DNA of 64,000 nt from Thermoanaerobaculia bacterium (GCA_963837455.1 CAWINM010000001.1:452832-516831), one strand, 5' to 3'; counted from the stretch's first letter, positions 6,506-64,000 are shown. The notes: generated by a model not told the origin, from the letters alone. Numbers and translations: made by a program.

Positions 6506-6786
6506 CGCCGCGCCTCCTCCCGGTCGCAGCCCCGGTTGCAGGGCCATGTTTCCGCCGCCAGCCGACGGGTTCAGCGTGGAGGTGTCCATGGCACCCCTTT
6601 GGACCCGCCGCGTCGTGGAAAGGAAACCGGGACGGCGGCACTGTATCGCGAGCGCCTGGCCCGGCGAGAGTGGCGCCGGCGGGGAGCGCACAGGGGGCGG
6701 GAGGCCGTCGTCAGCCTAGGCGCTCATCCCCCGGCTCGACCGCGGGCCCGCACCACCCGGCGCCCCCCTGGGGGAACGCGGCCGCC

Positions 6787-6951
6787 TCACGCTCGCCGCA
6801 GCAGGTGCCCGAGCAGCCCGAGGACGAACAGGATCAGGAACAGGAAGAACAGAATCTTGGCGATCCCCACGGCGCCAGCGGCGATGCCGCCGAAGCCAAA
6901 GAGCGCCGCCACCAAGGCGACGACGAGGAAGATCAGTGCCCAACGCAGCAT
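6787..6951 (-). CDS. UPF0391/DUF1328 small membrane protein (YtjA-like), 54 aa
   Basis: Not in the ORF track (under 60 aa). [54 protein letters not shown] matches the YtjA family pattern (M.RW.iiFLviAliAa.lGFGGiag.aagiAKilF). Strong GGAGGTGG RBS. Coordinates read by eye, possibly +/-1. Confidence 0.6.
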
Positions 6952-7020
6952 GGTTTCCACCTCCCTTGGCGGTCTTCCGCGACCGCGAGCCCCGCGGCCG
7001 CGATCCGCCGTTTCCTGTCC

Positions 7021-7311
7021 TCAACGATGCGGCGTCGGCGTGGGTGAGCTGCCCGGCATCTCGAGGCGAACCCGCGGCACCTCGATCGTCTTCTTCTCCG
7101 CGTGCACCTCGACCTTGGGCACCTCGATCTCCACGGGGGTGCTGGTCACGCGCACCTGCGCGGGCTTGACCTCGTACTCCGGCAGCTGGCCACCCTGGAC
7201 CTCGACCTTGGGCAGCTCGCCCGCCTTCGTCCTCGTCACCTGACAAGCGGCCAACGGCAGCGCCAGGACGGCGACTGCCAGGATGCTCGCGAACCTCGAT
7301 TGCCGTCGCAT
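7021..7311 (-). CDS. small lipoprotein with repeated (P)KVEV/EIEV motifs, 96 aa
   Basis: Signal peptide plus lipobox (MRRQSRFASILAVAVLALPLAAC). The long upstream extension in the ORF track (to 7692) looks spurious. Repetitive E/K/V-rich mature part. Confidence 0.5.
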   Translation of the reverse strand: MRRQSRFASILAVAVLALPLAACQVTRTKAGELPKVEVQGGQLPEYEVKPAQVRVTSTPVEIEVPKVEVHAEKKTIEVPRVRLEMPGSSPTPTPHR

Positions 7312-30877: not shown

Positions 30878-31597
30878 TCAGAACCGCCGGCCGAGGCCGA
30901 CCCAGTAGTTGGGCCCGCTGGAGTCGGTGTCGGCCAGCACCTCGGGCGCCGGCGCCAGCGAGCCGCTGGCGGCGACGTGATGGGTGAGACGGCCCCAGAA
31001 GTAGGCGACGCCGACCTCGGCGTACCAGCCCCGGGTCACGCCGAACGGCACGTCGAGCCCGAGCCCGGCCGTCGCCACCGGGAAGCTGCCGTCGTTGCGT
31101 ACGCGCAGACCCTCGTCGAGGAAGTCGTTGCGCAGTGTCAACGTCGTGGTGTCGCGCTCGTAGCCGAATCCGACGCCGGCGAGCACGAAGGGGAACGCCC
31201 GCGCGCAGCCGGGGCACGGCAGGAAGTGTGCCGCCGCCATGAGGTCTGCGAAGACGCTGTAGCGCTGCTCGAAGGCCAGCCGGGCGGGACCGGCCTCGGT
31301 GTCGATGGTGGCCCTGCCGTCGATGGCTCCCCGGCTGTAGTCGCCCTCCACCCCCACCAGCCAGCGCGGCGAGACCTGGCGGAGCACCTTGAGACCGAGG
31401 CTCAGGTTGTGGACGTCCCCCCAGTCCTCGAAGTTGGTGCCGAAGGCGCGGTTGATCTCGGCAATCTGCTCGTTGGTGCGGGTCTGCTTGGGAAAGGCCT
31501 CCTGCAGGTAGAGGGTGGCCGCCCATCCGGGCTCACGTTGCGCCAGCGCCGGGGCGGGGAGAAGGAGCAGGACTGCCAGCCAACTGGTGCGCCGCAT
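30878..31597 (-). CDS. small outer-membrane beta-barrel protein (OmpW/OmpA-like barrel, C-terminal Phe)
   Basis: Signal peptide MRRTSWLAVLLLLPAPALAQ. Beta-strand pattern with a terminal ...GLGRRF. GGAGGTGA RBS. Confidence 0.6.
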   Translation of the reverse strand: MRRTSWLAVLLLLPAPALAQREPGWAATLYLQEAFPKQTRTNEQIAEINRAFGTNFEDWGDVHNLSLGLKVLRQVSPRWLVGVEGDYSRGAIDGRATIDTEAGPARLAFEQRYSVFADLMAAAHFLPCPGCARAFPFVLAGVGFGYERDTTTLTLRNDFLDEGLRVRNDGSFPVATAGLGLDVPFGVTRGWYAEVGVAYFWGRLTHHVAASGSLAPAPEVLADTDSSGPNYWVGLGRRF

Positions 31598-31735: not shown

Positions 31736-32641
31736 TCAGGCGGTGCCGGCGTGGGCCCGCCGGGGCACCACCAGCACGGCGCAACCGGCGTGCTGGGCGA
31801 CGCGCTCGGCGGTGCTCCCGAGCAGCGCGCGGGCGGTGGCGCCGCGGCCACGGGTCCCCACCACCAGCAGGTCGACGTCGGCCTCCTTGGCGGCCGCCAC
31901 CAGCATCGGCGCGGGGACGCCGCACCGCAGCTCCGCGCGCACCGGGATGCCCTCGGCGCGGAGCTTGGCGGCTTCAGCGGCGAGGGCAACCTCGACCTGT
32001 CGTTCCCCAGCGGCAACGAACTGCTGCACCGTCGCTGTCATCTCCGCCGGATCGAAGGTCAGCTCGGGCGCGAAGACGTGCACGAGCACGACGTCTCCCA
32101 ACCGCGGCGCCAGCAGCCGCGCCGCCGCCTGCACGGCCGCCGTCGCATCGCCCGAGAAGTCGGTGGCGGCGAGGGCTCGCCACGGACCTGTCGGTGGCTC
32201 GCCGTCACCCCCGTGCAGGACCAGGACCGGGCAGTCCGCGCCCGCGATCAGCCGCTGCGCGGTGCTACCGAGCAACAGGTCGCGCCAGCCGTGGAGCCCG
32301 CGCGCCCCCACCACCACGAGATCCGGCCGGCAGCGGGCGGCGACCCTGAGCACCACCTCGGTCGGCGCCCCGACCTCGAGCTCGCAGCGCACGTCGTGCA
32401 ACCGCATTCGCAGCGGTGCGGCCAGCTGCTCGAGCCGGCGCCGGGTGCCCACCCGTAGCTCCTCGGCCATCACCGCCGCCATCTCGCTGACCCCGGCAAG
32501 GTGCGGCCAGTGCAGCGCATGGACCAGCCACAGCACCGCCCCGCGGGCCTCCGCGAAGTGCGCCCCCCAGGCCAGCGCGATCGCGCTCTCCGGGGAGAAG
32601 TCGGTCGCCACCAGCAGGCTTCGTTCGGGGACCTCGCTCAT
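31736..32641 (-). CDS. tandem universal stress protein (UspA) domain protein
   Basis: Two Usp domains (VATDFS..., LAATDFS..., G-x2-G-x9-G-S ATP motifs). The ORF extends far upstream, spuriously. Confidence 0.75.
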   Translation of the reverse strand: MSEVPERSLLVATDFSPESAIALAWGAHFAEARGAVLWLVHALHWPHLAGVSEMAAVMAEELRVGTRRRLEQLAAPLRMRLHDVRCELEVGAPTEVVLRVAARCRPDLVVVGARGLHGWRDLLLGSTAQRLIAGADCPVLVLHGGDGEPPTGPWRALAATDFSGDATAAVQAAARLLAPRLGDVVLVHVFAPELTFDPAEMTATVQQFVAAGERQVEVALAAEAAKLRAEGIPVRAELRCGVPAPMLVAAAKEADVDLLVVGTRGRGATARALLGSTAERVAQHAGCAVLVVPRRAHAGTA

Positions 32642-32815
32642 TGGTTCCAGCGTAGCCGAGGTCAGGCGGGTGGGCTCCCGCCCACCGGCGCGGGAAGGGT
32701 CGACACCGCAGCGGGCCCACGCCCACGGCGGCGGCCGGGCGCGGGCGACTCGAACGATGGCGCCCGCCGCCGCATTCGTGGCATGATCGGCGCCGCACAC
32801 CCACGCAAGCGTGGC

Positions 32816-34472
32816 ATGAGCGAACAAGACGATCGCGGCCGGTTGTCGCGGCGGTCCCTGGTCAAGGCCGGGCTCGCGGGCGGCACGTTGGCTCTCGCCG
32901 GCGGCGCCCTGCGCGCCGCGGCAGCGGACCCGGAGCAGCCGGCTGCGACGGCGTCGACGCCCCCCTTCGAGCTCGAGGAGCTCACTCTCGCCCAGCTGCA
33001 GGAGGGCATGCAGGCGGGCCGCTACACCGCCCGCTCGCTGGTCGCCGCGTACAGCGAGCGCATCCACGAGCTCAACACCCAGGGGCCCGAGCTGCGCGCC
33101 GTGATCGAGCTCGACCCCGACGCCGCGGCGGTTGCCGAGGGGCTCGACCGCGAACGCCGCGAGCGCGGGGCGCGCGGGCCGCTGCACGGCATCCCGGTGC
33201 TGCTCAAGGACAACGTCGGCACCGCCGACCACACCACGACGACCGCCGGCTCGCTCGCCCTCGCCGGCTCGGTGCCGCCGCGCGACGCCTTCATCGCCGC
33301 GCAGCTGCGTGCCGCCGGCGCCGTCCTGCTCGGCAAGGCCAACCTCTCGGAATGGGCGAACTTCCGCTCCGAGCGCTCGTCGAGCGGCTGGAGCAGCCGC
33401 GGCGGCCAGTGCCGCAACCCCTACGCCCTCGATCGCAACCCCTCGGGCTCGAGCTCGGGCTCGGCGGTGGCGGTCTCCGCCAACCTCTGCGCCGTCGCCG
33501 TCGGCACCGAGACCGACGGCTCCATCGTCTCCCCCTCCTCGCGCTGCGGCATCGTCGGCATCAAGCCCACGCTCGGCCTGCTCAGCCGCGCCGGCATCGT
33601 CCCCATCGCCCACAGTCAGGACACCGCGGGCCCGATGGGTCGCTGCGTGGCCGACGCGGCGACCCTGCTCGGCGTCCTCGCTGGTGTCGACGAGCGCGAC
33701 CCGGCCACCCTCGCCAGCCGCGGCAAGGCGGCCGCTGACTACACCCGCTTCCTCGACGCCGAGGGCCTGCGCGGCGCCCGCATCGGCGTCCACCACCCGC
33801 GCTCGCTCGCCGGCAACCCACACGTCGATGCCATGCTCGCCTCGGCCCTGGCGGCGCTCACCGACCACGGGGCGACGCTCGTCGACGGCGTCGAGCTCGA
33901 CCGCGGCAAGCTCGGCGACGCCGAGCTCCAGGTGCTGCTCTACGAGTTCAAGGCCGACCTCGAGCGCTACCTCGCCGAGCTCGGGCCGGCGGCGCCGGTC
34001 AAGTCGCTCGCCGACGTGATCGCCTTCGACGAGGCCCACCGCGATGCCGTCATGCCCTTCTTCGGACAGCGACATCCTCGTCGCCGCCGAGAAGAAGGGG
34101 CCGCTCAGCGAGAAGGCCTACCTCGACGCCCGCGCCACCTGCCTGCGCTACGCGCGCCAGGAGGGTCTCGACGCCGCGCTCGCCAAGCACGAGCTCGACG
34201 CCATCGTGGCTCCCAGCGGCGGCCCCGCCTGGCTCATCGACCTCGTCAACGGCGACTCGGGGACCGGCGGCAGCTCGACCTTCCCGGCCGTCGCCGGCTA
34301 CCCCAGCATCACCGTTCCCGCGGGGTGGGCGCACGGCCTGCCGCTCGCCGTCTCCTTCATGGGCGCGGCGTGGAGCGAGCCGACGCTGGTGCGCCTCGCC
34401 TTCGCCTTCGAGCAGGCCACCCGCGTGCGCCGGCCACCGCGCCTGCTGCCGACGGCGCCGCTCGCGGAATGA
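32816..34472 (+). CDS. amidase-signature family amidase with Tat-type signal (RRSLVKAGLAGG), one frameshift near 34070
   Basis: Amidase-signature GGSSSGSAVAV and the Ser-cisSer-Lys catalytic region. The C-terminal 140 aa continue in ORF 34044..34472 after a 1-nt frame change. Confidence 0.75.
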
Positions 34473-35179: not shown

Positions 35180-35917
35180 ATGACCGCGGACCCCGATATC
35201 CACACCCCGCCGCTCTTCGGTGCGCGCGGGGTCGCCAAGCGCTACCGGCTGGGGCGGGTGCCGGTGGCGGCGCTCACGGGCGTCGACCTCGACGTCGCCG
35301 CCGCCGAGGTGGTGGCCCTCGCGGGGCCCTCCGGCAGCGGCAAGACCACCCTCCTCAACCTGCTCGGCGGGCTCGACGTCCCCGACGCCGGCGAGGTGCG
35401 ACTCGGCGGCCGCAATCTCGGCGGCATGAGCGAAGGGGAGCGCACCCTGCTGCGCCGTCGCGAGCTCGGCTTCGTCTTCCAGACCTTCAACCTGGTGCCG
35501 GTGCTCACCGCCCTGGAGAACGTCGAGTACCCGCTGTGGATCGCCGGCACCGCTACCGCCGAGCGCCGCCGCCGCGCCGCCGAGGCGCTCGCCGCCGTCG
35601 GGCTCGGCGATCGCGCCCGCCATCGCCCGGACCAGCTCTCGGGAGGCGAGCGCCAGCGGGTGGCGATCGCGCGCGCCCTCGTGCACCGGCCGCTGGCGGT
35701 GCTCGCCGACGAGCCCACCGGCAACCTCGACTCGACGACGGCGCAGCAGGTGCTCGAGCTGCTCCTGCGCTGGAACGAGCAGAGCGGCGCCACGCTGCTC
35801 ATCGCCACCCACGACCCGGCGATCCTCGCCCGCGTGCCGCGACGCGTCCGCCTGCGCGACGGCCGGGTGATCGCCGACGAACGCGGCCCGCTGACTTCGG
35901 GGGGCGTGCCCTCGTGA
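35180..35917 (+). CDS. ABC transporter ATP-binding protein, LolD/MacB-type
   Basis: Walker A GPSGSGKTTL, signature LSGGERQRVAIARAL, Walker B, about 245 aa. Confidence 0.85.
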   Translation: MTADPDIHTPPLFGARGVAKRYRLGRVPVAALTGVDLDVAAAEVVALAGPSGSGKTTLLNLLGGLDVPDAGEVRLGGRNLGGMSEGERTLLRRRELGFVFQTFNLVPVLTALENVEYPLWIAGTATAERRRRAAEALAAVGLGDRARHRPDQLSGGERQRVAIARALVHRPLAVLADEPTGNLDSTTAQQVLELLLRWNEQSGATLLIATHDPAILARVPRRVRLRDGRVIADERGPLTSGGVPS

Positions 35918-37152
35918 GATGGGCACGGATGGCGCTGCGCAACCTGGCGCGCAATCGCCGGCGCACGGCGATCTCGCTGCTGGTGGTGGCGGCCGGCAGC
36001 GTCGCCCTGCTGCTCACCAGCGGCTTCATCGTCTTCAGCTTCCGCGGCCTCGAGGGGGCGCTCATCCACGGTGGCCTCGGGCACCTCGAGGTGGCGCCCG
36101 CCGAGGCCGCCGGCAGCGGCCACCTCGACCGGCCGGTGAGCGGCGCGCTCGCGGACTGGCGAGCGTTGCAGCGCCGACTGGCGACGCTGCCCGCGGTGGC
36201 CTCGGTGGCGGCCAACGTTCACCTCATGGGGATGGCCTCGACGCCCGCGGGTCGCAGCGCCTCGTTCGTCGCCGTGGGCGTCGAGCCCGACCGCGAGCGT
36301 GCCATGGGCTTCGCCACCAAGCTGCGCGCGGGAAGGGATCTTCCCGACGCCGCGCCGGCGGAAGGGGAGGACGTGGTGCTGCTCGCCAGCGGCCTCGCCG
36401 CGGCGCTCGACGCACGGCCTGGCGACGTCGTCACGCTCCTTGCCCTCACCCCCGACGGATCGCTCAACGCCCTCGACGTGCGCGTCGCCGGCACGATCAC
36501 CACCGGGGTGCAGGACCTCGACAGCCGCTTCGCCAAGCTCCACCTGGCGAGCGCCCAGCGCCTGACCCAGAGCGCGTCGGTCTCGGACCTGCTGGTGATG
36601 CTGCGCGACGGCACCTCGCTCGCCGCCGGCAGCCGCGCCGTCACGGCGGCCGTGGCCGGCCACCGGCCGCCGCTCGCGGTGGTCGACTGGAAGGCGCGCG
36701 CCCCCTTCTACGAGCAGGTGCGCAACCTCTATCTGGGTATCTTCTGGTTCCTCGGCTCGGTGATCCTCGTGCTCGTCGTCCTCTCGGCCTCCAACACCCT
36801 GCTGATGGCGGTGCTCGAGCGCACCCGCGAGCTGGGGACGCTGCGCGCCATCGGCACCAGCCGCGCCCAGGTGGCGGCGATCGTGCTCCTCGAGGCGCTG
36901 TGGCTGGGGCTGCTCGGCGGCGCCCTCGGCTGCGTGCTGGGCTGGGCGGCGACGCTGGCCATCAACGCCAGCCACCTGCAGATGCCGCCGCCACCCGGCG
37001 CCGTCGATCCCATCGACGTCGAGCTGGCGCTCGTGCCGATGGCGTTTGCCGGCACGGTGGCGCTGATGCTGGTGGTGCTCGCCGTCGCCGCCGCGGTGCC
37101 GATCGGGCGCGCGGTGCGGCTGCGGGTCGCCGAGGCCCTCACCTCGCTGTAG
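35914..37152 (+). CDS. ABC transporter permease, FtsX family (LolC/E-like)
   Basis: The GTG start overlaps the upstream stop (GTGA). N-terminal TM helix, periplasmic MacB-PCD-like domain and C-terminal FtsX 3-TM bundle. Confidence 0.8.
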   Translation: MRWARMALRNLARNRRRTAISLLVVAAGSVALLLTSGFIVFSFRGLEGALIHGGLGHLEVAPAEAAGSGHLDRPVSGALADWRALQRRLATLPAVASVAANVHLMGMASTPAGRSASFVAVGVEPDRERAMGFATKLRAGRDLPDAAPAEGEDVVLLASGLAAALDARPGDVVTLLALTPDGSLNALDVRVAGTITTGVQDLDSRFAKLHLASAQRLTQSASVSDLLVMLRDGTSLAAGSRAVTAAVAGHRPPLAVVDWKARAPFYEQVRNLYLGIFWFLGSVILVLVVLSASNTLLMAVLERTRELGTLRAIGTSRAQVAAIVLLEALWLGLLGGALGCVLGWAATLAINASHLQMPPPPGAVDPIDVELALVPMAFAGTVALMLVVLAVAAAVPIGRAVRLRVAEALTSL

Positions 37153-37214
37153 CGATGGCTCGGTTGGCGGCCGCGACAGGAATCCCCACCCTGCGGTCCC
37201 ACGTTGCAAGGGTG

Positions 37215-38027
37215 ATGTCCGCTCACCGGCGACCCCACCGTGACCCCCGCCGCTCGGCCCGCGCGTGGCTGCGCCGGCGGGCGCTGGCGCTTGCCGCGAG
37301 CGCGCTCGCACTGGGCGCAGCTGCGCCCGCCGCGACCGAGGCGCCGACGGCCGCCGATCGCGAGCTGCTCGCCGCCGCCGACCTCGGCCGCGCGCAGCCG
37401 GCGGCGTTCCGTTCCGAGGTGCGCGTCGAGCCGCTGGCAGGCAGCGGCGCGACGAGCTTCGAGGTCTGGCGCGACGGCGACCTCGCCCTCGTCCGCTACC
37501 TCGACCCGCGGCAGCGCGGCAAGGCGTTCCTCGAGCGCCCGGAGGGCACCTGGCTGCTGGCACACGGCGCACGGCCGGTGAAGCTGGGCACCGCCAGTCG
37601 CGTGGCGGCGGGGACGAGCTTTCAGGAGCTCGTGGGTCTCTCCTTCTCGCGCGACTTCACGCTCGAGGCGGTCTCCCACCAGGGAACCGGCGAGGGCGAG
37701 CTGGTGACCTTCTCGCTGCACGCCGCACACCCCGGGCTGCCCTATGCGCGCGTCGACTACGTCGTGCGCGCCGCCACGCGCCGCCCGCTGCGCATCGAGT
37801 ACCGCCTCGACTCCGGTCGGCTGGCGCGCATGGTGGAGCTCGTGGCCTGGCGGCCGGGCCTGCCGCCGATCCCCTCCGAGACGGTGGCGAAGGACCTGCT
37901 CGGCGGGCGGCCGCCGGTGCGCGTGCGGCTGCTCGAGCTCGAGGCGCGGCAGCCGCCGCCGCATCTCTTCGAGCTGTCGCCCGCCGGCGATGCCGCGCGA
38001 GCCGCGCTCGCCGCCGCCGCACCCTGA
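37215..38027 (+). CDS. LolA-like / outer-membrane lipoprotein-sorting-protein-like periplasmic protein
   Basis: Signal peptide and size and pattern typical of LolA-like domain proteins that accompany LolCDE-like ABC systems. Assignment tentative. Confidence 0.55.
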   Translation: MSAHRRPHRDPRRSARAWLRRRALALAASALALGAAAPAATEAPTAADRELLAAADLGRAQPAAFRSEVRVEPLAGSGATSFEVWRDGDLALVRYLDPRQRGKAFLERPEGTWLLAHGARPVKLGTASRVAAGTSFQELVGLSFSRDFTLEAVSHQGTGEGELVTFSLHAAHPGLPYARVDYVVRAATRRPLRIEYRLDSGRLARMVELVAWRPGLPPIPSETVAKDLLGGRPPVRVRLLELEARQPPPHLFELSPAGDAARAALAAAAP

Positions 38028-53857: not shown

Positions 53858-55126
53858 TCACCAGGCGACGAGCGCCGCCGGGCCCGGCCAGGCGGCGAGC
53901 ACCGCCAGGCCGACGAGCAGCCCGATTCCCCACAGCACGCCGATCCGCCGCCCCAGCGTCCGGCCGCCGAGCACCGCCACCACGCCCGCCTTGAAGACCA
54001 GGTTGGCGAGCGAGGCGAAGAGGATCAGCCGCCAGGCGAGGTCGGCGTCGAGCGTGCCCCCCCGCACCAGCTGCGCGCTCGACAAGGTGATGGCCTCGAG
54101 GTCGACGAGCCCCGACATGCCGGCGACGGCGAAGAGGCCGCGGCTGCCGAACTGCGCCTTCGCCCAGGCAACGGCGAGGACCACCAGCGCGTAGACGACG
54201 GCAAAGACCAGGGCCGTGCTCAGCTCGCTCGGGTTGCCGTGCTCGACGGGCTGGGCCTTTTCGTCGGGGGCGCGGCGGCCGGTGCCCCACCAGGCGAGAC
54301 CGCCGAGCACCGCCAGCATGAACAGCAGTGGCGCCGCGGCACGGGCGAGGAGGCCCACAGAGACGATCGCCATCTCGACGAGAACGCGCAGGTAGATGAC
54401 CGCGGTGGCGATGAGGATCACCTGCAGCGCGCCCTCGAGGCTGGCCGCGCCCTCGCGGGCGCGGCGGCTGAATGTGACGGTGGTGGCGGTGCTCGACACC
54501 AGACCGCCGAGCACGCCGCCGAGCAGGTTGCCGCCGCGCGCGCCGAGTGTCTTGTTACCCACGTAGGCGGCCAGCGACAGGCCGACGATGAGCACCACCA
54601 TCCACCACACCTGGCGCGGGTTGAGCACCTCGTAGGGGCCGAAGGTGCGGTCCGGAAGCAGCGGCAGCACCACCAGCGAGACGAGCACGAACTGCATCAC
54701 CGCTCGCAGGTCCTCGTCGCCCAGCCGGGTGGCGAAGCGATGCAGCGGCACCTTGAGCTGCAGCAGCACCACTGTGGCACCGGCGATCGCCACCGCCACC
54801 TGTGGGTGCCCGACCATGAGGTAGCCGCCGAGGGCGAACATCAGCAGCACCGTCACCTCGGTGGTCACCCCGGCGTCGGGGTGCCCGGCATGGATCTTCG
54901 CCAGGTTGCCGACGAACACCACCGCGGTGAGGCTGACGAAGCCGCCGACGAGCACCCAACCGCCGAAGTCGAAGGCGAGCAGGCCGCACACCGCACCGGT
55001 GAGGGTCACCAGCGGGAAGGTGCGGAAGCCCGCGATGTCGCCCGTCTTGCGCTCGCGCTGCAGGCCGACGAGAAGCCCCAGCCCGAGGGCGATCCCCAGC
55101 CGCAGGAAGACGTCGGCGAGCTCCAC
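53858..55126 (-). CDS. MgtC/SapB-family membrane protein with C-terminal DUF4010 domain
   Basis: N-terminal MgtC-like motif (ALGLGLLVGLQRE...GFRTFPLV) and a multi-TM C-terminal domain. 422 aa. Confidence 0.8.
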   Translation of the reverse strand: MELADVFLRLGIALGLGLLVGLQRERKTGDIAGFRTFPLVTLTGAVCGLLAFDFGGWVLVGGFVSLTAVVFVGNLAKIHAGHPDAGVTTEVTVLLMFALGGYLMVGHPQVAVAIAGATVVLLQLKVPLHRFATRLGDEDLRAVMQFVLVSLVVLPLLPDRTFGPYEVLNPRQVWWMVVLIVGLSLAAYVGNKTLGARGGNLLGGVLGGLVSSTATTVTFSRRAREGAASLEGALQVILIATAVIYLRVLVEMAIVSVGLLARAAAPLLFMLAVLGGLAWWGTGRRAPDEKAQPVEHGNPSELSTALVFAVVYALVVLAVAWAKAQFGSRGLFAVAGMSGLVDLEAITLSSAQLVRGGTLDADLAWRLILFASLANLVFKAGVVAVLGGRTLGRRIGVLWGIGLLVGLAVLAAWPGPAALVAW

Positions 55127-55268
55127 AGCTGAGCGATCCTAGCCCGGACCGCGCAGCGGCACACCGTTGTCCCACGGCCTCCACAGCGGCCCGGCGCCGC
55201 CCCCGACACGGTTGCGCTAGGCTCCTTGCCCCCCGGTTGTCGGTCCCCTGGCGCCGAGCCGCTGCGAC

Positions 55269-57342
55269 TCAGGGCGAGCCGGCGCTCCAGGCCCCGGTCG
55301 TGCCGCCCTCGAAGCCGTCGCTGAAGAGCGCGCCGATGGCGTCGGGGGTGATGGTGAAGTCGGCGTTGGAGACGTCGAAGAAGACGTTGCCGACGCACGA
55401 CACCCGGATGCGTGCCTGCGTGGTCGGCAGGTTGGGGACGGTGATGCTCTCCGTACCGTCGTTGGCAGTGGTGGCGGCGATGACGGTGGGAAACGTGTTG
55501 CCACCGTCGGTGGACAGCGCGATGGCGACGCTGGCGCAGGAGACCGGCGCGAGGTCGGTGCCGGCGACGGCCCAGGTGATCGTCTGCGTGCTGTTGCCCG
55601 CCCAGCTGGCGGCGGTGTTGGGCTGGGTCACGGTGAACGGCCCAGCCGCGGCGGCAACGGTCACCGTCGTGGTGTCCCAGTCGACGCCACCGCCGCCGAG
55701 CTGGTTGTCGCGCGCGGTGAGCCGGAAGGTCAGGGTGCGGTCGCGCGTCGACATCGACTCGCCGAGGGTGGCGATGTTGGCGAGGATGTCGGAGAGACGC
55801 GGGAAGGTGCGGCTGGGAACCGTCAGCGGCACGAAGGAGCGGAAGATCGGCCGCGCCGCGGCGACGTCGTCGTTGGGAGGCGCCGCGGCGCCGAGGTCGA
55901 GCTCCTCCCACATGTAGGTCAGCGAGCCGGGCGCCTCGGCATCGCTGGCCGAGCCGGTGAGCGTGAACGGCGTCTGCTCGGGGATGGTGTAGGCGGCACC
56001 GGCGTCGACGCTGGGCGCGGTATTGCCGGTGGCGGTGATCGCCGCACAGGAGCTGCCGGTGACGCCGGTCGAGAAGGCGACGATCTCGTCGAAGCTCTTG
56101 GTGTGGAAGGTGTCGTCGCTGTGCGGCTGCAGATCCTCGGCGCCGCAGATGCCGGCGTAGGCCATGATCGTCGAGCCGCTGCCGGGCTCGTAGGCGGCAG
56201 AGCTGCTGCGGTTGCCGCCGCCGCAGTTGCCGGTGGTGCCGTTGAAGGTGTGGTTGGCGCCGAACTGGTGCCCCATCTCGTGGGCCACGTAGTCGACGTC
56301 GAAGCCGTCGCCGACCGGGTTCGAGGAGCCGGTGACGCCGCGTGCCTTGGTGCCGGTGCAGGGAACCCTGAGGTTGGCCACACCGCCGCCGCCGGTCGAG
56401 AAGACGTGCCCGACGTCGTAGTTGGCGGCGCCGATGACGCCGTCGAGGGTGGTCTGGTTCTGGCCCGAACATCGTCGGGCCGTTGTTGTTGGTGTAGGGG
56501 TCGGTGGCGCCGTTGGTGTAGACGACGAGGTCGTCGTTGGCGACCAGCACCATGCGGATCGCCACCTCGCGCTCGTAGATGCCGTCGACACGGTTCATCG
56601 ACACCGCCATGGCGTTCATCGCGCAGGCGACGGCGGCCGGGTTGGGGGCGCACACCGCCGTCGAGTACTCGCCGGTGGCGGCGAGCGCCAGGCGGTAGGT
56701 GCGCAGCTGGGTGCCGGAGGCGGCGGCGGGGACGGGGACGGCCGCCGGTGGCAGGGCAGCGTCGACGCCCGCCGCGTCACCCTTCACCTCGCAGCGGAAG
56801 GGGGGCCCCGCCGGCCGCGCCTCGCGCTTCCAGTAGCTGAGGGCGTAGCGCTCGTCCCAGCGGCGGTAGGGAGCGATGAAGAGCGTTCCCGACGTCGACA
56901 GCACCATGGCGTGGAACCCCAGGGAGGTCAGGCTCAGCCGGGCGGTGGCCGCGGGGTCGTCGACACCCTTGGCGGCGAAGGTCCGGATCTCGGGGAACCT
57001 CGCGGCCAGCGCGGGCTCGAGGATCGGCGACTCCTCGACCCGGAAGGTGCGGTCGGTGCCGTCGGGGTAGGGCAGCAGCAGGGTCACCGGCGCAGAGAGG
57101 GCGGCGGCCGAGCCCTCCCGCGGCGCCCGCGCCAGCCGCCCCTCGAGCTCCGCGACGTCCACCTCGAGCAGCCGGAAGTGCCGCGGGAGGGGGATCTCCC
57201 GCGCGCCTCCGCGCGGCGCCGCGGCCAGCGCCGACGCCAACGGCAGGTCGTGGAACGGGCTGCCCTGGGCCTCGGCGGGGACGGCGCCGAGGCAGATGCA
57301 GGTGGCGAGCATGGCAAACTGCAGGTGCCGTGTGATGGGCAT
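55269..57342 (-). CDS. secreted reprolysin-like (M12B-type metzincin) zinc metalloprotease, one frameshift near 56470
   Basis: Signal peptide. HEMGHQFGANH zinc-binding motif in ORF 55269..56591. The N-terminal 290 aa are in ORF 55006..57342. The junction MFG|QNQTTLDG implies a 1-nt insertion. Confidence 0.7.
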
Positions 57343-58929: not shown

Positions 58930-59493
58930 GTGGGTGCTGCGCACGTTATGCCAGCGGGCCCGGGCGACCAAACCACGGCCGACTCGTCGGCGGGGGAGCG
59001 ACCTTCGGAGCCGGCGGCGGCGGCCATCGCCCCGGGCCGCGCAGCGACCTCCGAGGTGATCCGCGCGGGCGGCCAGCCCGGCGCTTGGGAGGGCATCGAC
59101 TCCCTCCCCTATCGCCACTCCCTCACCGGCGGCGACGACCACCGCGGGTCGGCGGTGACGCGCCGGCTGCTCGCCGGTGGCACGGCGAGCGGCTGCGCCT
59201 TCGAGCTGCGTTACTTCGAGCTCGCTCCCGGCGGCCGCACGGCGCGCGAGCGCCACCAGCACGCGCACGCGGTTGTCGTCCTGCGCGGTGCCGGCGAGGT
59301 GCGGCTCGGCGAGGTCGTCGCGACGCTCGCTCCCGGCGACCTCGTACGGGTGGCGCCCGCGGAGCCGCATCAGTTCCGCAACCCGGGGTCGGAGCCATTC
59401 GGCTTCCTCTGCGTCGTCGACGCCGAGCGCGACGCGCCGACCCCGCTCGACGACGACGACGCGCCGTCCTGCAGCGTCGCGCCGGGCGGGTAG
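58930..59493 (+). CDS. cupin-domain protein
   Basis: Cupin_2-like two-His motifs (HQHAHAVVVLRG...GDLVRVAPAEPHQF). The start is uncertain. Confidence 0.6.
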   Translation: MGAAHVMPAGPGDQTTADSSAGERPSEPAAAAIAPGRAATSEVIRAGGQPGAWEGIDSLPYRHSLTGGDDHRGSAVTRRLLAGGTASGCAFELRYFELAPGGRTARERHQHAHAVVVLRGAGEVRLGEVVATLAPGDLVRVAPAEPHQFRNPGSEPFGFLCVVDAERDAPTPLDDDDAPSCSVAPGG

Positions 59494-59614
59494 CGGCCCA
59501 CCCGCCCGCCCTTCCTGCGCTTCGGGCACACCTGCTGGCGGCGGGCCGGAGCCGGCGAACCCTTCCGCTCGGCGAGGGGCGGACCACGGGCGGGCGGGAC
59601 GAGGCGGGCCGGTG

Positions 59615-59645
59615 TTGACATATCGGACCAAGCCGGTCCAGAATC
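59615..59645 (+). promoter_or_regulatory. candidate sigma-70 promoter (TTGACA-N18-CAGAAT) with embedded inverted repeat GGACCaagccGGTCC, immediately upstream of apbE
   Basis: Perfect -35 hexamer at 59615-59620 and a 5-bp-arm palindrome in the spacer (59625-59639). The region 59600-59760 is conspicuously AT-rich for this genome. Confidence 0.25.
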
Positions 59646-59656
59646 TCTGCAGGCAA

Positions 59657-60862
59657 ATGAGACAACGTCTCAACAGCGGCTCGAGCCTTCCGGCTTCATT
59701 CGCGACCTATTCCGTAACTCTTTCTGGAGCAATAGCTTGCCGATCGAGCCACCTGCTGGCCCGGGGGCTCCTCGGGGTGGCCGTGCTCGCTGCGCTGGCC
59801 GCCGGTGCCCTCGCGGGTACCCACGGGGCCGCCGGCAACGGGCGCCACGTCACCGTCGAGCGGCAGCTCTACCTGATGGGTACGCGGGCCAGCCTGGCCA
59901 TTACGGCCGACAGCCACGCCGCCGCGGCGGCCGGCGCCGAGGCGGGCGTGCGCGCCCTCGAGGCCACCGCCGAGCGCCTCTCCACCTGGCGCGAGAGCAG
60001 CGAGCTGTCGCGCCTCAATCGGGCCCCGGCCGGAACGCCCGTGCCGCTGTCGCCCCGCCTCGCCGGCGAGCTCGCCGCCGCCACCGCTTGCGCCGCCGAC
60101 ACCGGCGGCGCCTTCGACCCCGACGTCGGGCGGCTGATCGACCTCTGGGACCTGCGCGGTGGCGGCCGGGTGCCGTCGCCGCGGGAGGTCGCCGCCGCGC
60201 TCCCCGCCACCCGGCTCGACGCCCTCGAGCTGCGGGGGCGCACCGCCGTCCGCCGCCACCCCGAGCTGCGGCTCGAAGAGGGCGCCTGGGGCAAGGGTGC
60301 CGGCGTGGACGCCGCGCTGGCCGCGCTGCGCGCCGAGCCCGCCGTCACCGGCGCCTGGCTCGACCTCGGCGGACAGGCGGCGGTGCTCGGGGATGAGGCC
60401 TGGGAGGCCACCGTCGCCGACCCCGCCGACCGCGCGCGCCCGGTGGTCGCCGTGGCGCTCGCCGGCGGCTCGCTGGCGACCAGCGGCAACGGCGAGCACG
60501 GCCTGCGCGTGGAAGGACGGCGCCTAGGCCACCTCCTCGATCCGCGCAGCGGTGCTCCCGCGCCCGACTTCGGCACGCTCACCGTGTGGGCGGCCCAGGG
60601 GCTCCGCGCCGACTGCCTGTCGACCGGGCTCTTCGTCATGGGGCCCGCCGCCGCCCTCGACTGGGCTGCCGCGCACCCCGAGGTGGCGGTGCTGGTGCTG
60701 CGGCGCGACGGCGGCGCCCTGACGCTCGCGGCGAGCGCCAACCTCGCCGGGCGCCTGCGGCCCCTCGTCCCCGAGCTGACGATGTCGTTCCCCGAGGTCC
60801 GAGAGAAGAACGAAGGAGCAGCGGGCCGGATCGCCTGGCAGCGCGGGCCCGCTGCCCCCTGA
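59657..60862 (+). CDS. apbE: FAD:protein FMN transferase (ApbE family)
   Basis: ApbE conservation throughout (…ADPADRARPVVAVALAGGSLATSGNGEHG…LGHLLDPRSG…). N-terminal hydrophobic signal/anchor. The start (59657) is tentative. Confidence 0.8.
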   Translation: MRQRLNSGSSLPASFATYSVTLSGAIACRSSHLLARGLLGVAVLAALAAGALAGTHGAAGNGRHVTVERQLYLMGTRASLAITADSHAAAAAGAEAGVRALEATAERLSTWRESSELSRLNRAPAGTPVPLSPRLAGELAAATACAADTGGAFDPDVGRLIDLWDLRGGGRVPSPREVAAALPATRLDALELRGRTAVRRHPELRLEEGAWGKGAGVDAALAALRAEPAVTGAWLDLGGQAAVLGDEAWEATVADPADRARPVVAVALAGGSLATSGNGEHGLRVEGRRLGHLLDPRSGAPAPDFGTLTVWAAQGLRADCLSTGLFVMGPAAALDWAAAHPEVAVLVLRRDGGALTLAASANLAGRLRPLVPELTMSFPEVREKNEGAAGRIAWQRGPAAP

Positions 60863-60913
60863 CCGCCCACGGACGGGCGTTGGCGCGCCCGGCGTGGACA
60901 GCGAGGAGAGTGT

Positions 60914-62413
60914 ATGTCCGATCGTGCGGAGGTGTCTCGGGTAGGGATTCACAGCCTCGTCGGCGCGGCGATCCTGGGGTTCGCCGGCCTGGTGGCCATG
61001 CCGGCGGTGTCCGGCGCGCAGTCAGGGCCGGCGGCGAAGGTCACCGCGACCTGCAGTGACGCCGAGCGCCTGCGCGCGCTCGAGCGGCAGGTGGAGGAGC
61101 TGCGGGCGCAGCTCGCGGCGCTGCGCGCGGCGCAGGCCGCGACGCCGGCAAGCGCAGGCGCGGCGCCGCCCACCGGCGCCACCGCACCGGCGCCCGACGT
61201 CGCCGAGCTGGCGCGCCGCATCGAGGTGCTGGCCGCCGAGGTCGAGCGGCTCGAGCTCGGCGAGGCGGCCGCGGCGCCGGCGGCGGAGCACGGCACCTAC
61301 GGGCTCGGTCCGGCAGCCTCGAAGGTCTACCAAGGCGGCCACGGCGTCTCGCTCGGCGGCTACGGCGAGCTGCTCTACCAGCGCTTCGCCGGCACCGACC
61401 AGTCGGGGGAGCCTTCCGGGCAGACCGACCAGATCGACTTGCTGCGCGGCGTCGTCTACGTCGGCTACAAGTTCGACGACCACTTCCTCTTCAACTCCGA
61501 GATCGAGTTCGAGCACAGCGGCTCGAGCGACGCCCACGAGGAGGGGGAGGCCGGGCTCGAGTTCGCCTACGTGGACTACCTTTCCCGGCCCGCCTTCAAC
61601 GTGCGCGCGGGGCTCGTCCTGCTGCCGGTGGGCTTCCTCAACGAGCTGCACGAGCCGCCGGTGTTCCTCGGCGCGCGGCGCAACGACGTCGAGCAGGTGA
61701 TCCTTCCCTCGACCTGGCGCTCGCCCGGCTTCGGGCTCTTCGGCGGCGGTGCCTCTTGGAGCTACCGCACCTACGTCGTCAACGGGCTCGACGCCTCGCG
61801 CTTCACCGCCGATGGCGGGGTGAGCGAGTCGCGCGAGAGCCTGGCCGCCAAGGCGCGCGCCGAGGACTTCGCCTGGGTGGGGCGGCTCGACTACACCGGC
61901 ACGCCAGGCCTCGTCGCCGGGGTCTCGGCGTATGGCGGGGACTCCGGTCAGGGGATGCTCGACGGCGATGGGCGGACCCTCGACGCCAGGACCTCGATCC
62001 TCGAGGTCCACACCGAGTGGCGCTGGCGCGGCCTTCGCGTGCGCGCCCTCGCCGCGCGCGGCAGGATCGCGGACACCGCCCGCCTCAACGACGCCCTCGG
62101 GCTGGCGGGGGAGGAGGCGGTGGGCAGCGAGCAGCGCGGCGCCTACGTCGAGGCCGGGTACGACCTCCTCGCCGCCTGGCCGCACGGCAGTCAGTCGCTG
62201 ACGCCGTTCCTGCGCGTCGAGTCGCTCGACAGCCAGCACCGGGTGGCCGACGGTTTCGCGCGCGACCCGGCGAACGATCGACGCATCCTGACGCTGGGCC
62301 TGCAGTACCAACCGATCGACCCGCTGGTCGTCAAGGTCGACTGGCAGCGGATGCGCAACGGGGCGCGCACGGGGGTGAACCAGCTCAATGTGGCGCTGGG
62401 CTACCTGTTCTAG
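60914..62413 (+). CDS. outer-membrane beta-barrel porin with N-terminal coiled-coil (phosphate-porin O/P- or OprB-like)
   Basis: Signal peptide and heptad-repeat segment (LRALERQVEELRAQLAALRAAQ...). A beta-barrel pattern follows, ending in ...LNVALGYLF. Confidence 0.7.
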   Translation: MSDRAEVSRVGIHSLVGAAILGFAGLVAMPAVSGAQSGPAAKVTATCSDAERLRALERQVEELRAQLAALRAAQAATPASAGAAPPTGATAPAPDVAELARRIEVLAAEVERLELGEAAAAPAAEHGTYGLGPAASKVYQGGHGVSLGGYGELLYQRFAGTDQSGEPSGQTDQIDLLRGVVYVGYKFDDHFLFNSEIEFEHSGSSDAHEEGEAGLEFAYVDYLSRPAFNVRAGLVLLPVGFLNELHEPPVFLGARRNDVEQVILPSTWRSPGFGLFGGGASWSYRTYVVNGLDASRFTADGGVSESRESLAAKARAEDFAWVGRLDYTGTPGLVAGVSAYGGDSGQGMLDGDGRTLDARTSILEVHTEWRWRGLRVRALAARGRIADTARLNDALGLAGEEAVGSEQRGAYVEAGYDLLAAWPHGSQSLTPFLRVESLDSQHRVADGFARDPANDRRILTLGLQYQPIDPLVVKVDWQRMRNGARTGVNQLNVALGYLF

Positions 62414-63092
62414 ACACTCCCGGCCCGGCCCGGCCGGGAGCGCCGGCGCGCACCGTCCATCCGGGCGCGCCCACGCGGCCGCCCTGGCGGTGCTCGCCTC
62501 CGTGGCCCTCGGTCCGCCGGCCTCGGCGCGGGTCCTGCTGCGCGCCGAGGAAGCGCTCCGTCTCGCCTTCCCGGGCTGCGAGGTGGAGCGCGCCAGCGTC
62601 TTCCTCACCGAGGCGCAGCTCGCGCGGGCCCGCGAGCTCGCCGGCGAGCCGGTACGCAGCGCCCTGGTGCCGCTCTACCGCGCGCGCTGCGGCGGCAAGC
62701 CCGGCGGCACGGCCTACGTCGACGTCCACACCGTGCGCACCTTGCGGGAGACGCTCCTCGTGATCCTCGACACCGGTGGCCGCGTCGCTCGCGTCGAGGT
62801 GCTGGCCTTCGACGAGCCGGCCGACTACCTTCCCCGTGCGCCGTGGTACGCGCGGTTCGAGGGCCGCAGCCTCGATGCCGAGCTGCGCCTCGCACGCGGC
62901 ATCCCGCCGGTCACCGGCGCCTCGCTGACGGCGCGCGCCACCACCGCGGCCGTGCGGCGGGTGCTCGCCATCCACCAGGCGATCGCCGAGACGACGGCGC
63001 CGGCGCCGCAGGCATCGCCCGCTCCGCGAGGGCAGGCCGGCCCACCACCGCCACCCCCACCCCGGTCCGGCAACGGCGGGCGCACCCGGTGA
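62388..63092 (+). CDS. FMN-binding-domain protein (ApbE flavinylation substrate candidate; motif PVTGASLT)
   Basis: FMN_bind-like C-terminal region with a [ST]GA[ST] flavinylation motif (TGAS). Signal-anchor. Pro-rich tail. Confidence 0.65.
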   Translation: MWRWATCSRHSRPGPAGSAGAHRPSGRAHAAALAVLASVALGPPASARVLLRAEEALRLAFPGCEVERASVFLTEAQLARARELAGEPVRSALVPLYRARCGGKPGGTAYVDVHTVRTLRETLLVILDTGGRVARVEVLAFDEPADYLPRAPWYARFEGRSLDAELRLARGIPPVTGASLTARATTAAVRRVLAIHQAIAETTAPAPQASPAPRGQAGPPPPPPPRSGNGGRTR

Positions 63093-63571
63093 GGCGCTGG
63101 GAGGCCTGGTCGGTCCACGTCTCGACCCTGCTGGTGGGGAGCAGCGGCGTCGTCTACGCCTGCATCCGCTACCTGCTGCCGCCCGCCGATCCCTACTCGA
63201 GGGTGGCCAGCCCCCTGCAGCCGCGGGTACAGCACCTGCACGTGCTGGCGGCGCCGTTGCTCGTCTTCGCGATCGGCCTCATCTGGCGGCATCACGCCTG
63301 GAGCCACTGGCGCACGGGCGGGCGGGAACGACGCTCGAGCGGCCTCAACCTGCTGGCGGCCGTTGCCCCGATGGTGGCCTCCGGCTACCTGCTGCAGACC
63401 TCCGTGAGCGAGGGGTGGCGCCAGGCGTGGGTCGTCGTCCACCTCCTCGCCTCGGCGCTCTTCCTCGCCGGCTACGCCGGTCACCTGGTGGCGGCCTGGG
63501 CCGGTCGGCGGCGACGCCGTGCGAGCGAACGCCGCGCCGCTCCTGCAGGGGTCCCGGCCGGCGCCCATTGA
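63089..63571 (+). CDS. His-rich 4-TM membrane protein (cytochrome-b-like / DUF4405-like candidate)
   Basis: The GTG start overlaps the upstream stop (GTGA). Four predicted TM helices, each with conserved His residues. Confidence 0.5.
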   Translation: MRRWEAWSVHVSTLLVGSSGVVYACIRYLLPPADPYSRVASPLQPRVQHLHVLAAPLLVFAIGLIWRHHAWSHWRTGGRERRSSGLNLLAAVAPMVASGYLLQTSVSEGWRQAWVVVHLLASALFLAGYAGHLVAAWAGRRRRRASERRAAPAGVPAGAH

Positions 63572-63625
63572 GCTCGAAGGCGCCGCGGCGCTAACATCTT
63601 GCTGCCGGCCGCGGGCCGGACCTCA

Positions 63626-64000
63626 TGCAGACGGTCACGCCCGAGCCGATCCGCTACACGCTCACCTTCCCGGCCCCCGAAACCCACTACGTCGAGATCG
63701 ACGTCTCGCTACCCACCGGTGGGCAGCCCGTGCTGGAGCTGTTCCAGCCGGTGTGGACGCCGGGGTCGTACAGGATTCGCGACTACCCGCGCCACGTCGA
63801 GGGCCTGCGTGCCGAGAGCACCGGGGGCAACCTCCTGCCGCTCGAGAAGCTGCGCAAGAACCACTGGCGTCTCACCACCTGGGGAGCGCCTCGCGTCCAC
63901 CTGCTCTATCGCGTCTACGCCCGCGAGCTCACGGTGCGCACCAACTTCGTCGACCGCGACTTCGCGCTGCTCAACGGTGCCGCGACCTTCCTCACCCTCG
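63626..64000 (+). CDS. M61-family (glycyl aminopeptidase-like) metallopeptidase, 5' partial (continues beyond window)
   Basis: The N-terminal beta-sandwich region with PVWTPGSYRIRDYPRHV resembles the M61 N-terminus. Confidence 0.55.

Follow-up and report, generated by a model that had tools for sequence, protein, structure and literature searches.

In a 64,000-nucleotide stretch of a Thermoanaerobaculia bacterium genome (GCA_963837455.1, CAWINM010000001.1:452832-516831; hereafter the window), we analysed a module of four genes encoding the flavin transferase ApbE, an outer-membrane porin, a secreted flavin mononucleotide (FMN)-binding protein and a small four-helix membrane protein (Table 1). 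Based on our data, the module is probably a Fur-controlled system for assimilatory ferric reduction and iron entry that is induced under iron starvation, and not a respiratory relay. Iron assimilation is the most likely function since most relatives carry the same genes in one operon with fur and a ferrous-iron permease gene, and the window keeps the promoter and the operators of these operons.

Table 1. Features of the apbE locus, numbered from the first nucleotide of the window.
Feature	Position	Strand	Remarks
-35 hexamer TTGACA	59615..59620	+	part of the sole sigma-70-like site, 10/12 match
Palindrome GGACC-N5-GGTCC, operator-like, first of two	59625..59639	.	in the promoter spacer; conserved in related promoters
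-10 hexamer CAGAAT	59639..59644	+	conserved at >=94% in related promoters
Probable 5' untranslated leader, AT-rich	59645..59776	+	low GC3 (G+C content at third codon positions); variable length among relatives
Palindrome TGAGAC-N3-GTCTCA, probable Fur-family box	59658..59672	.	just downstream of the predicted transcription start; sole perfect copy in 64 kb
apbE, FAD (flavin adenine dinucleotide):protein FMN transferase	59777..60862	+	Pfam ApbE 1.9e-56; start probably GTG 59777, longest-ORF (open reading frame) alternative ATG 59657
Outer-membrane 16-stranded porin, 499 aa	60914..62413	+	signal peptide, two periplasmic coiled-coil helices, C-terminal Phe
Secreted RnfG/NqrC-like FMN-binding protein, 234 aa	62388..63092	+	predicted flavinylation at S179 of TGAS; PF04205 in family members
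Four-helix inner-membrane protein, 160 aa	63089..63571	+	putative di-haem cytochrome b

A conserved module linked to fur and ferrous-iron permeases

Relatives were collected by a degenerate-pattern scan for the flavoprotein in one genome per species, and the genes in the related loci were mapped with tblastn. The flavoprotein is present in at least 416 species-level genomes, almost all of which are metagenome-assembled genomes of Thermoanaerobaculia, Holophagales or other Acidobacteriota. The order apbE, porin, FMN-binding protein and four-helix protein on one strand is kept in 56 of the 66 loci long enough to hold the whole set, the exceptions being loci in which apbE has moved or one gene is lacking, and in almost every locus the porin gene is located between apbE and the flavoprotein gene.

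Upstream context was counted in the 51 loci with enough flanking sequence. Directly upstream of the module, 35 of them carry fur, a fusion gene for FTR1 and an FtrD-like/DUF2318 domain, two FtsX genes and an ABC ATPase gene, as assigned with Pfam. A fur-FeoB pair takes this place in four loci (FeoB_N 4e-40), with FeoB matches in six loci overall; another four have a divergent fur together with FTR1, one has fur alone and seven have none of these genes. Altogether, fur and/or a ferrous-iron permease accompany the module in 44 of the 51 loci, and a link to FTR1 exists in 39.

A preliminary description of the locus had taken the four genes for a stand-alone relay leading electrons from the membrane to the periplasm and possibly on to the outer membrane. 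The genes lie on the plus strand at the coordinates described there, with coupled boundaries (a gap of 51 nt, then overlaps of 26 and 4 nt), they are co-conserved in other genomes, and no Nqr or Rnf subunit gene is adjacent to the flavoprotein gene. The stand-alone arrangement, by contrast, is a property of this genome only, as most relatives carry the module as the 3' half of a fur/ferrous-iron-permease operon. The four genes most likely constitute one co-transcribed operon. At the first overlap, the ATG of the flavoprotein gene (62386-62390) is formed by the only AAT asparagine codon of the porin gene, the other nine being AAC, and this AAT-G is kept in 20 of 43 relatives; its retention suggests selection for translational coupling.

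Besides, one of the divergent-fur loci (L078) encodes a secreted protein of 254 amino acids without a Pfam match on the opposite strand (6533-7297, minus strand), between FTR1 and the boxed apbE promoter. A similar layout is seen in the divergent-fur loci L056, L080 and L082.

The promoter and its two palindromes

A near-consensus -35 box and an operator-like palindrome in an unusually AT-rich patch ahead of apbE had already been pointed out, and both are borne out by our analysis. The site TTGACA-18-CAGAAT (59615-59644) is the sole sigma-70-like site in 59400-64000, with a count of 0.0 in shuffled sequence. Its spacer contains the GGACC palindrome (GGACCaagccGGTCC, 59625-59639), which recurs at this place in 45 related promoters, and the G+C content, about 75% in the region, drops to 51% in the patch at 59640-59740. 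That account was incomplete in one respect: a second and better conserved palindrome, TGAGACaacGTCTCA at 59658-59672, had been overlooked.

For comparison, we used 47 related promoters chosen for a TTGACA 40-48 nt upstream of the second palindrome, so that their -35 is invariant by selection. Their consensus reads gTTGACAAAcaGGACcannncgGTCCAGAAT, followed by a variable stretch and then tTGAGAcnnanTCTCAAtAag, and the GGAC and GTCC halves of the first palindrome are 85-100% conserved, mostly at 96% or above. The exact pattern TTGACA-N4-GGAC-N7-GTCCAGAAT (19-base core) occurs in one copy each in 32 loci, and of 72 boxes of the second palindrome, 45 (45 related promoters, the window's included) have the GGACC palindrome about 33 nt ahead of them. 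With its -35, GGACC palindrome, -10 and TGAGAC palindrome, the window promoter matches that of the relatives' fur/permease operons. As conservation extends over the entire promoter, we consider both palindromes candidates for a function, the GGACC element as a putative operator for the same or another factor.

The TGAGAC palindrome is probably a Fur box, since it lies, with up to two mismatches, within 200 nt upstream of 43 of the 45 fur genes in related loci. It also persists alone in the divergent-fur loci, which have it at both the fur and the apbE position and lack the GGACC element, and its TGA...TCA ends are those of 15-bp Fur-family boxes. At the same tolerance, it precedes apbE in 12 of the 28 loci that have no ABC gene in front of apbE, and about 55 of the 70 boxes detected in 1.22 Mb fall at fur or apbE upstream positions. 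Copies with at most one mismatch are expected 0.06 times per 64-kb window. A copy with one mismatch (TGAGACCGAGGCTCA) lies at 31390-31404, in a region of overlapping ORFs on the downstream side of a double-Usp gene (31736-34075, minus strand); in spite of the low expectation, this location inside ORFs and beside a Usp gene makes it probably a chance occurrence, and we did not retain it as a site.

Downstream of the promoter, the hydrophobic N-terminus of ApbE precedes a conserved VERxxxxMGT motif, and the start codon is uncertain between 59777 and 59657. The low GC3 in the apbE frame up to 59740 (0.46 for 59657-59740 vs 0.93 for 59777-60859) and the short N-termini of the relatives ahead of VERxxxxMGT led us to assume that the transcript probably begins with a leader of about 125 nt, and that apbE probably starts at GTG 59777. 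By its codon usage, ATG 59657 is an unlikely start, and TTG 59737, which has a GGAG in front, was rejected as it is out of frame with ApbE. Leader lengths differ among relatives, and an Rfam scan of 59300-60000 at E<=1 found no riboswitch or other RNA family in this AT-rich leader.

ApbE and its presumed flavoprotein substrate

The transferase matches Pfam ApbE (PF02424) over profile positions 1-265 of 266. With NCBIfam PRK10461, the equivalog model of E. coli/Salmonella ApbE, it scores 94.7 bits, under the cut-off of 498; it is a family member and not the enterobacterial orthologue. Its pairing with an FMN_bind substrate that bears a flavinylation motif, as first described, is well reflected in the family. 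In the motif PVTGASLT (residues 174-181; TGAS at 176-179), G177, A178 and S/T179 are invariant in 36 sequences, for which reason we regard the site as real, and position 176 is S, T or A.

The family of the FMN-binding protein comprises more than 300 sequences, often named FMN-binding protein or RnfG. The FMN_bind assignment holds at the level of this family: 35 of 36 aligned members match PF04205 (best 4.8e-8), and the family profile finds RnfG (9eri_G, E=0.017), with vtGAtLTa aligned on ITGSTIT of RnfG. An A-x-A signal-peptide site stands ahead of the FMN-binding domain.

A putative small cytochrome b

The fourth gene had been described as a four-transmembrane protein with histidines in every helix, plausibly a set of b-haem ligands. 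The four helices are clearly seen in an AlphaFold2 model (AF2; mean predicted local distance difference test, pLDDT, 92.3), and histidines are indeed conserved across homologues, but helix 3 has none. In close relatives, H49, H51, H69 and H118 are invariant and H10 (helix 1) and H132 nearly so; in more distant members, including fusions to ApbE, only H51, H69, H118 and H132 stay invariant. These form a pair on helix 2 (H51, H69) and a pair on helix 4 (H118, H132, 14 residues apart), and this two-plus-two layout would suit two stacked b haems.

Profile searches give a less clear picture. The protein stays below threshold with both Ni_hydr_CYTB (PF01292, 27.1 bits vs 30.1) and DUF4405 (E=0.037), and at E<=0.05 these families are matched by 7 and 4 of 36 relatives, respectively. 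The family profile gave only chance CALHM2 matches against PDB sequences, and hhalign comparisons with E. coli CybB and FdnI were uninformative (probability 0.2). Among the best structural matches of the model, on the other hand, are di-haem cytochromes b, and the closest natural-protein relatives are HyaC and FdnI. We infer haem binding from these features and designate the protein as putative cytochrome-b-like.

The family counts 862 representatives at 50% identity among 1.84 billion proteins. In six relatives (P0362, P0410, P0462, P0476, P0489, P0377), the four-helix protein forms the N-terminal part of a fusion with a complete ApbE domain, from which a fifth hydrophobic segment separates it, and this fusion ties the membrane protein to flavinylation. 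In a further relative (P0482), the four-helix domain is followed by Phenol_MetA_deg, an outer-membrane barrel family; this is either a real fusion or a gene-calling artefact and hints at a different outer-membrane protein accompanying the module.

An OprP-like porin with conserved acidic residues

The porin with an N-terminal coiled coil that had been noted between apbE and the FMN-binding gene is recovered in the AF2 model (pLDDT 81), which consists of a signal helix, helices 49-76 and 94-115 and 16 strands that end in the terminal Phe. The barrel is of the 16-stranded trimeric-porin type and closest to OprP. The exact sequence was not on record in a sequence look-up, and the window porin matches no Pfam family, Porin_O_P (PF07396) included; a precomputed PF07396 match exists for 13 of 120 listed porin homologues.

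The invariant residues of the barrel comprise 16 acidic, 8 basic and 3 His residues, found among others in the motifs NSEIEFEH (E196, E198, E200, H201), NELHEP (E244, H246, E247) and E364/H366. This bias towards acidic and His residues would argue against an OprP-like anion site. We also considered a flavinylated outer-membrane protein in the manner of DUF3570, and rejected it as the sole [ST]GA[ST] motif of the porin is a TGAT at residue 87 in a non-conserved Ala/Pro linker. The porin being an OprP-type channel that has no conserved flavinylation motif, nothing supports electron transfer to or through the outer membrane, which had been raised as a possibility at first.

Proposed mechanism and alternatives

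We propose the following mechanism. At iron sufficiency, a Fur-family repressor encoded elsewhere in the genome would bind TGAGAC-N3-GTCTCA downstream of the start site, and the GGACC palindrome in the promoter spacer may be bound by the same or another factor. Upon iron starvation, i) periplasmic ApbE would modify the secreted RnfG-like protein at S179 with covalently bound FMN, ii) the four-helix protein, with one predicted haem near the periplasm (H51, H118) and one near the cytoplasm (H69, H132, H10), would take electrons from the quinol pool and pass them through the membrane on to this flavin, and iii) the flavoprotein would reduce Fe(III) species that enter via the OprP-like porin with its conserved acidic and His interior. 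A permease of the FTR1 or FeoB type, encoded elsewhere, would then take up the Fe(II) formed.

Several points weigh against this mechanism. Since no fur, FTR1 or FeoB gene is found in the 64-kb window, it belongs to the class without upstream iron genes, and iron coupling in this genome would rest on the shared promoter and on the relatives. The window's own FMN-binding protein, taken alone, is sub-threshold on PF04205 (16 bits vs a cut-off of 22), yet nearly all of its family match. The porin is not obligatory, as it is missing in the relatives L024 and L059, and Fur is probably, but not definitely, assigned to the right one of the two palindromes.

A last objection concerns the direction of electron flow. 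FTR1-type permeases elsewhere are thought to pair with Fe(II) oxidation, and oxidation during transport has been proposed for Fet3/Ftr1, EfeUOB and FtrABCD. The flavoprotein and the cytochrome b would then serve as an electron sink, with electrons from Fe(II) oxidised in FTR1-type transport passing via FMN and the two haems to the quinone pool. FTR1 is the commonest linked permease (39 of 51 loci), and HyaC and FdnI, the closest structural relatives of the four-helix protein, move electrons from the periplasm to quinone. However, four to six loci link the module to FeoB, an Fe(II) importer that needs no oxidation step, and no cupredoxin or P19 gene occurs in the related clusters: in L002, fur is directly followed by FTR1 with no room between them, and the tblastn maps show the same spacing. 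In other phyla, moreover, the homologous position is taken by thioredoxins, which are reductants (PMC6083913). The reductive direction is therefore favoured, in view of the FeoB-linked variants, these thioredoxins and the iron-limitation phenotypes of Bifidobacterium breve, in which mutation of sif or apbE confers sensitivity to iron chelators (PMC5449479), and we regard flow towards the quinone pool as unlikely.

The same gene set could also serve respiration on external acceptors. ApbE and an FMN_bind protein are the core of flavin-based extracellular electron transfer (PMC8238504), and with an outer-membrane protein encoded within the operon, the module might be a dissimilatory conduit, the diderm counterpart of Listeria FmnB/PplA, that delivers electrons to external Fe(III) or other acceptors via the porin, perhaps with diffusible flavins. 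The linkage to fur and to importers of iron, like the conserved box of the Fur type, speaks for assimilation instead, and no multihaem cytochromes, multi-flavin proteins or Ndh2/quinone genes were found in the related clusters. A 16-stranded OprP-type barrel is too narrow for a redox protein, and conduit barrels such as MtrB are much larger. Because of the Fur and importer linkage and the narrow barrel, we consider a conduit highly unlikely.

Finally, the module could be a general periplasmic reductase with a client other than iron, for instance in an MsrPQ-like repair of oxidised envelope proteins, next to an unrelated general-diffusion porin. The window itself contains no gene for a substrate-binding or catalytic partner, and the two relatives without a porin fit such a role. 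Against it, the porin keeps its place in nearly all loci and overlaps the flavoprotein gene, to which its AAT codon supplies the ATG, and iron genes recur beside the module whereas MsrP-like or other client genes do not. A non-iron role is thus quite improbable, and we retain assimilatory iron reduction and entry as the preferred function.

Neighbouring genes and further observations

The module is flanked by a cupin and an acyltransferase gene upstream and an M61 peptidase gene downstream, which appear unrelated to it. Neither the cupin nor the M61 peptidase gene recurs in related loci or has a functional link to the module, and both were rejected as operon members.

Elsewhere in the window, two overlapping ORFs in different frames on the minus strand (55006-57342) resemble one secreted reprolysin-like zinc metalloprotease. 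ORF 55006-57342 encodes a signal peptide and about 290 plausible residues before it becomes Arg-rich, and ORF 55269-56591 contains HEMGHQFGANH and matches Pfam Reprolysin; the pair is probably the result of a frameshift near 56500-56590, as a sequencing error or a pseudogene. A gene at 53858-55126 (minus strand) encodes an MgtC/DUF4010 membrane protein. At 35264-38027 (plus strand), a generic ABC ATPase, 49% identical to the cluster ATPase, is followed by an ORF of 702 amino acids; it is not obviously part of an iron system.

Significance and comparison with known systems

FTR1/P19-type clusters are widespread, also in pathogens, and raise two questions, the source of their periplasmic reducing power and the passage of iron across the outer membrane. 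The acidobacterial version, from a poorly studied group of soil and sediment bacteria, encodes candidates for both, namely the small cytochrome-b-like protein that is fused to ApbE in some relatives and the porin within the operon. A more far-reaching proposal, which we put forward as rather doubtful, is that the porin, with its invariant Glu/His residues, is a dedicated, TonB-independent and Fur-regulated iron channel whose periplasmic coiled coil docks the flavoprotein for Fe(III) reduction at the channel exit, and that the cytochrome represents a sixth class of flavinylation-associated transmembrane electron carriers. If this is true, the porin would be the outer-membrane component noted as missing by Liu et al. 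(2018), who found no outer-membrane receptor encoded in the FTR1/P19 cluster, and the module would be part of a three-layer, envelope-spanning machine for iron reduction and uptake. The sharply defined promoter with its two conserved candidate operators makes the regulatory part of our proposal directly testable.

Clusters of FTR1, DUF2318, FtsX and ABC genes are needed for growth under iron limitation, and their terminal protein is a thioredoxin in Proteobacteria and an FMN-binding protein in Gram-positives (PMC6083913). The relatives' Fur-linked operon, with FTR1, a DUF2318/FtrD-like domain, two FtsX proteins, an ABC ATPase and, as its last product, a periplasmic redox protein, resembles Campylobacter jejuni 1649-1656 (cFtr1-P19), Yersinia pestis FetMP-Flc and B. 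breve BfeUO-SifABCDE, and as in the Gram-positive and spirochaete versions, the terminal redox protein is of the FMN-binding type. This full set is present in 35 of the 51 related loci and absent from the window. In contrast to these systems, there is no P19 gene, DUF2318 is fused to FTR1, and apbE, a porin and a cytochrome-like protein are added; some relatives use FeoB, and in the window the redox/porin half stands apart from the transporter half, under a separate copy of the promoter. The preliminary description had called this kind of relay inferred but uncharacterised, which is half true, as FTR1 systems with an FMN-binding protein and b-type cytochromes linked to apbE have been described (PMC6083913, PMC8238504, PMC11334425, PMC5449479).

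The four-helix protein is akin to the flavinylation-associated cytochromes (DUF4405, PepSY-like, MsrQ-like), membrane proteins encoded beside apbE and a flavinylated domain, with conserved intramembrane His residues that might ligate two b haems; several such systems have a link to iron assimilation, and apbE-linked cytochromes of the DUF4405 type are haem b-binding proteins (PMC11334425). The cytochromes described by Huang et al. (2024; PMC11334425) are, however, six-helix DUF4405 proteins of Proteobacteria and Firmicutes, and the substrates in the flavinylation-associated systems are Flavodoxin_4 or DUF2271, whereas the present family has four helices in about 150 residues, only weak, sub-threshold similarity to DUF4405 and Ni_hydr_CYTB, a mainly acidobacterial distribution and an FMN_bind substrate. 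It also falls outside the five transmembrane classes (NapH-, MsrQ-, PepSY-, DsbD- and Nqr/Rnf-like) of Meheust et al. (2021; PMC8238504), in whose scheme the P19/FTR1 clusters with FMN_bind have no membrane component for electron transfer. With CybB, HyaC and FdnI of E. coli, four-helix di-haem cytochromes b of the Ni_hydr_CYTB family, it shares no significant sequence or profile match; its second invariant His pair lies on helix 2 (H51, H69) instead of one His each on helices 1 and 2, and its partner is a flavoprotein and not a hydrogenase or formate dehydrogenase.

Comparable differences exist for the other two components. The porin shares 15% identity with the phosphate porins OprP/OprO and the coiled-coil porin DcaP, its invariant residues are mostly Glu, Asp and His as opposed to the arginine ladder and lysine cluster that make OprP phosphate-selective, and unlike these porins it is encoded inside a Fur-type operon. 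The flavoprotein belongs to the same FMN-binding fold family as RnfG and NqrC, with the flavinylation motif aligned, yet it has no other Rnf/Nqr subunit adjacent and is, with its cleavable signal peptide, a secreted soluble protein and not a membrane-anchored subunit. Full-text literature searches, with incomplete coverage that is no proof of novelty, returned no description of this cluster, including the small cytochrome family. We regard the cluster as a Gram-negative variant of the FTR1/P19 systems represented by C. jejuni 1649-1656 and B. breve Bfe/Sif; the overall type is known, and what appears to be new is the four-helix cytochrome-like family with its ApbE fusions, the OprP-like porin within the operon and the two-operator promoter.

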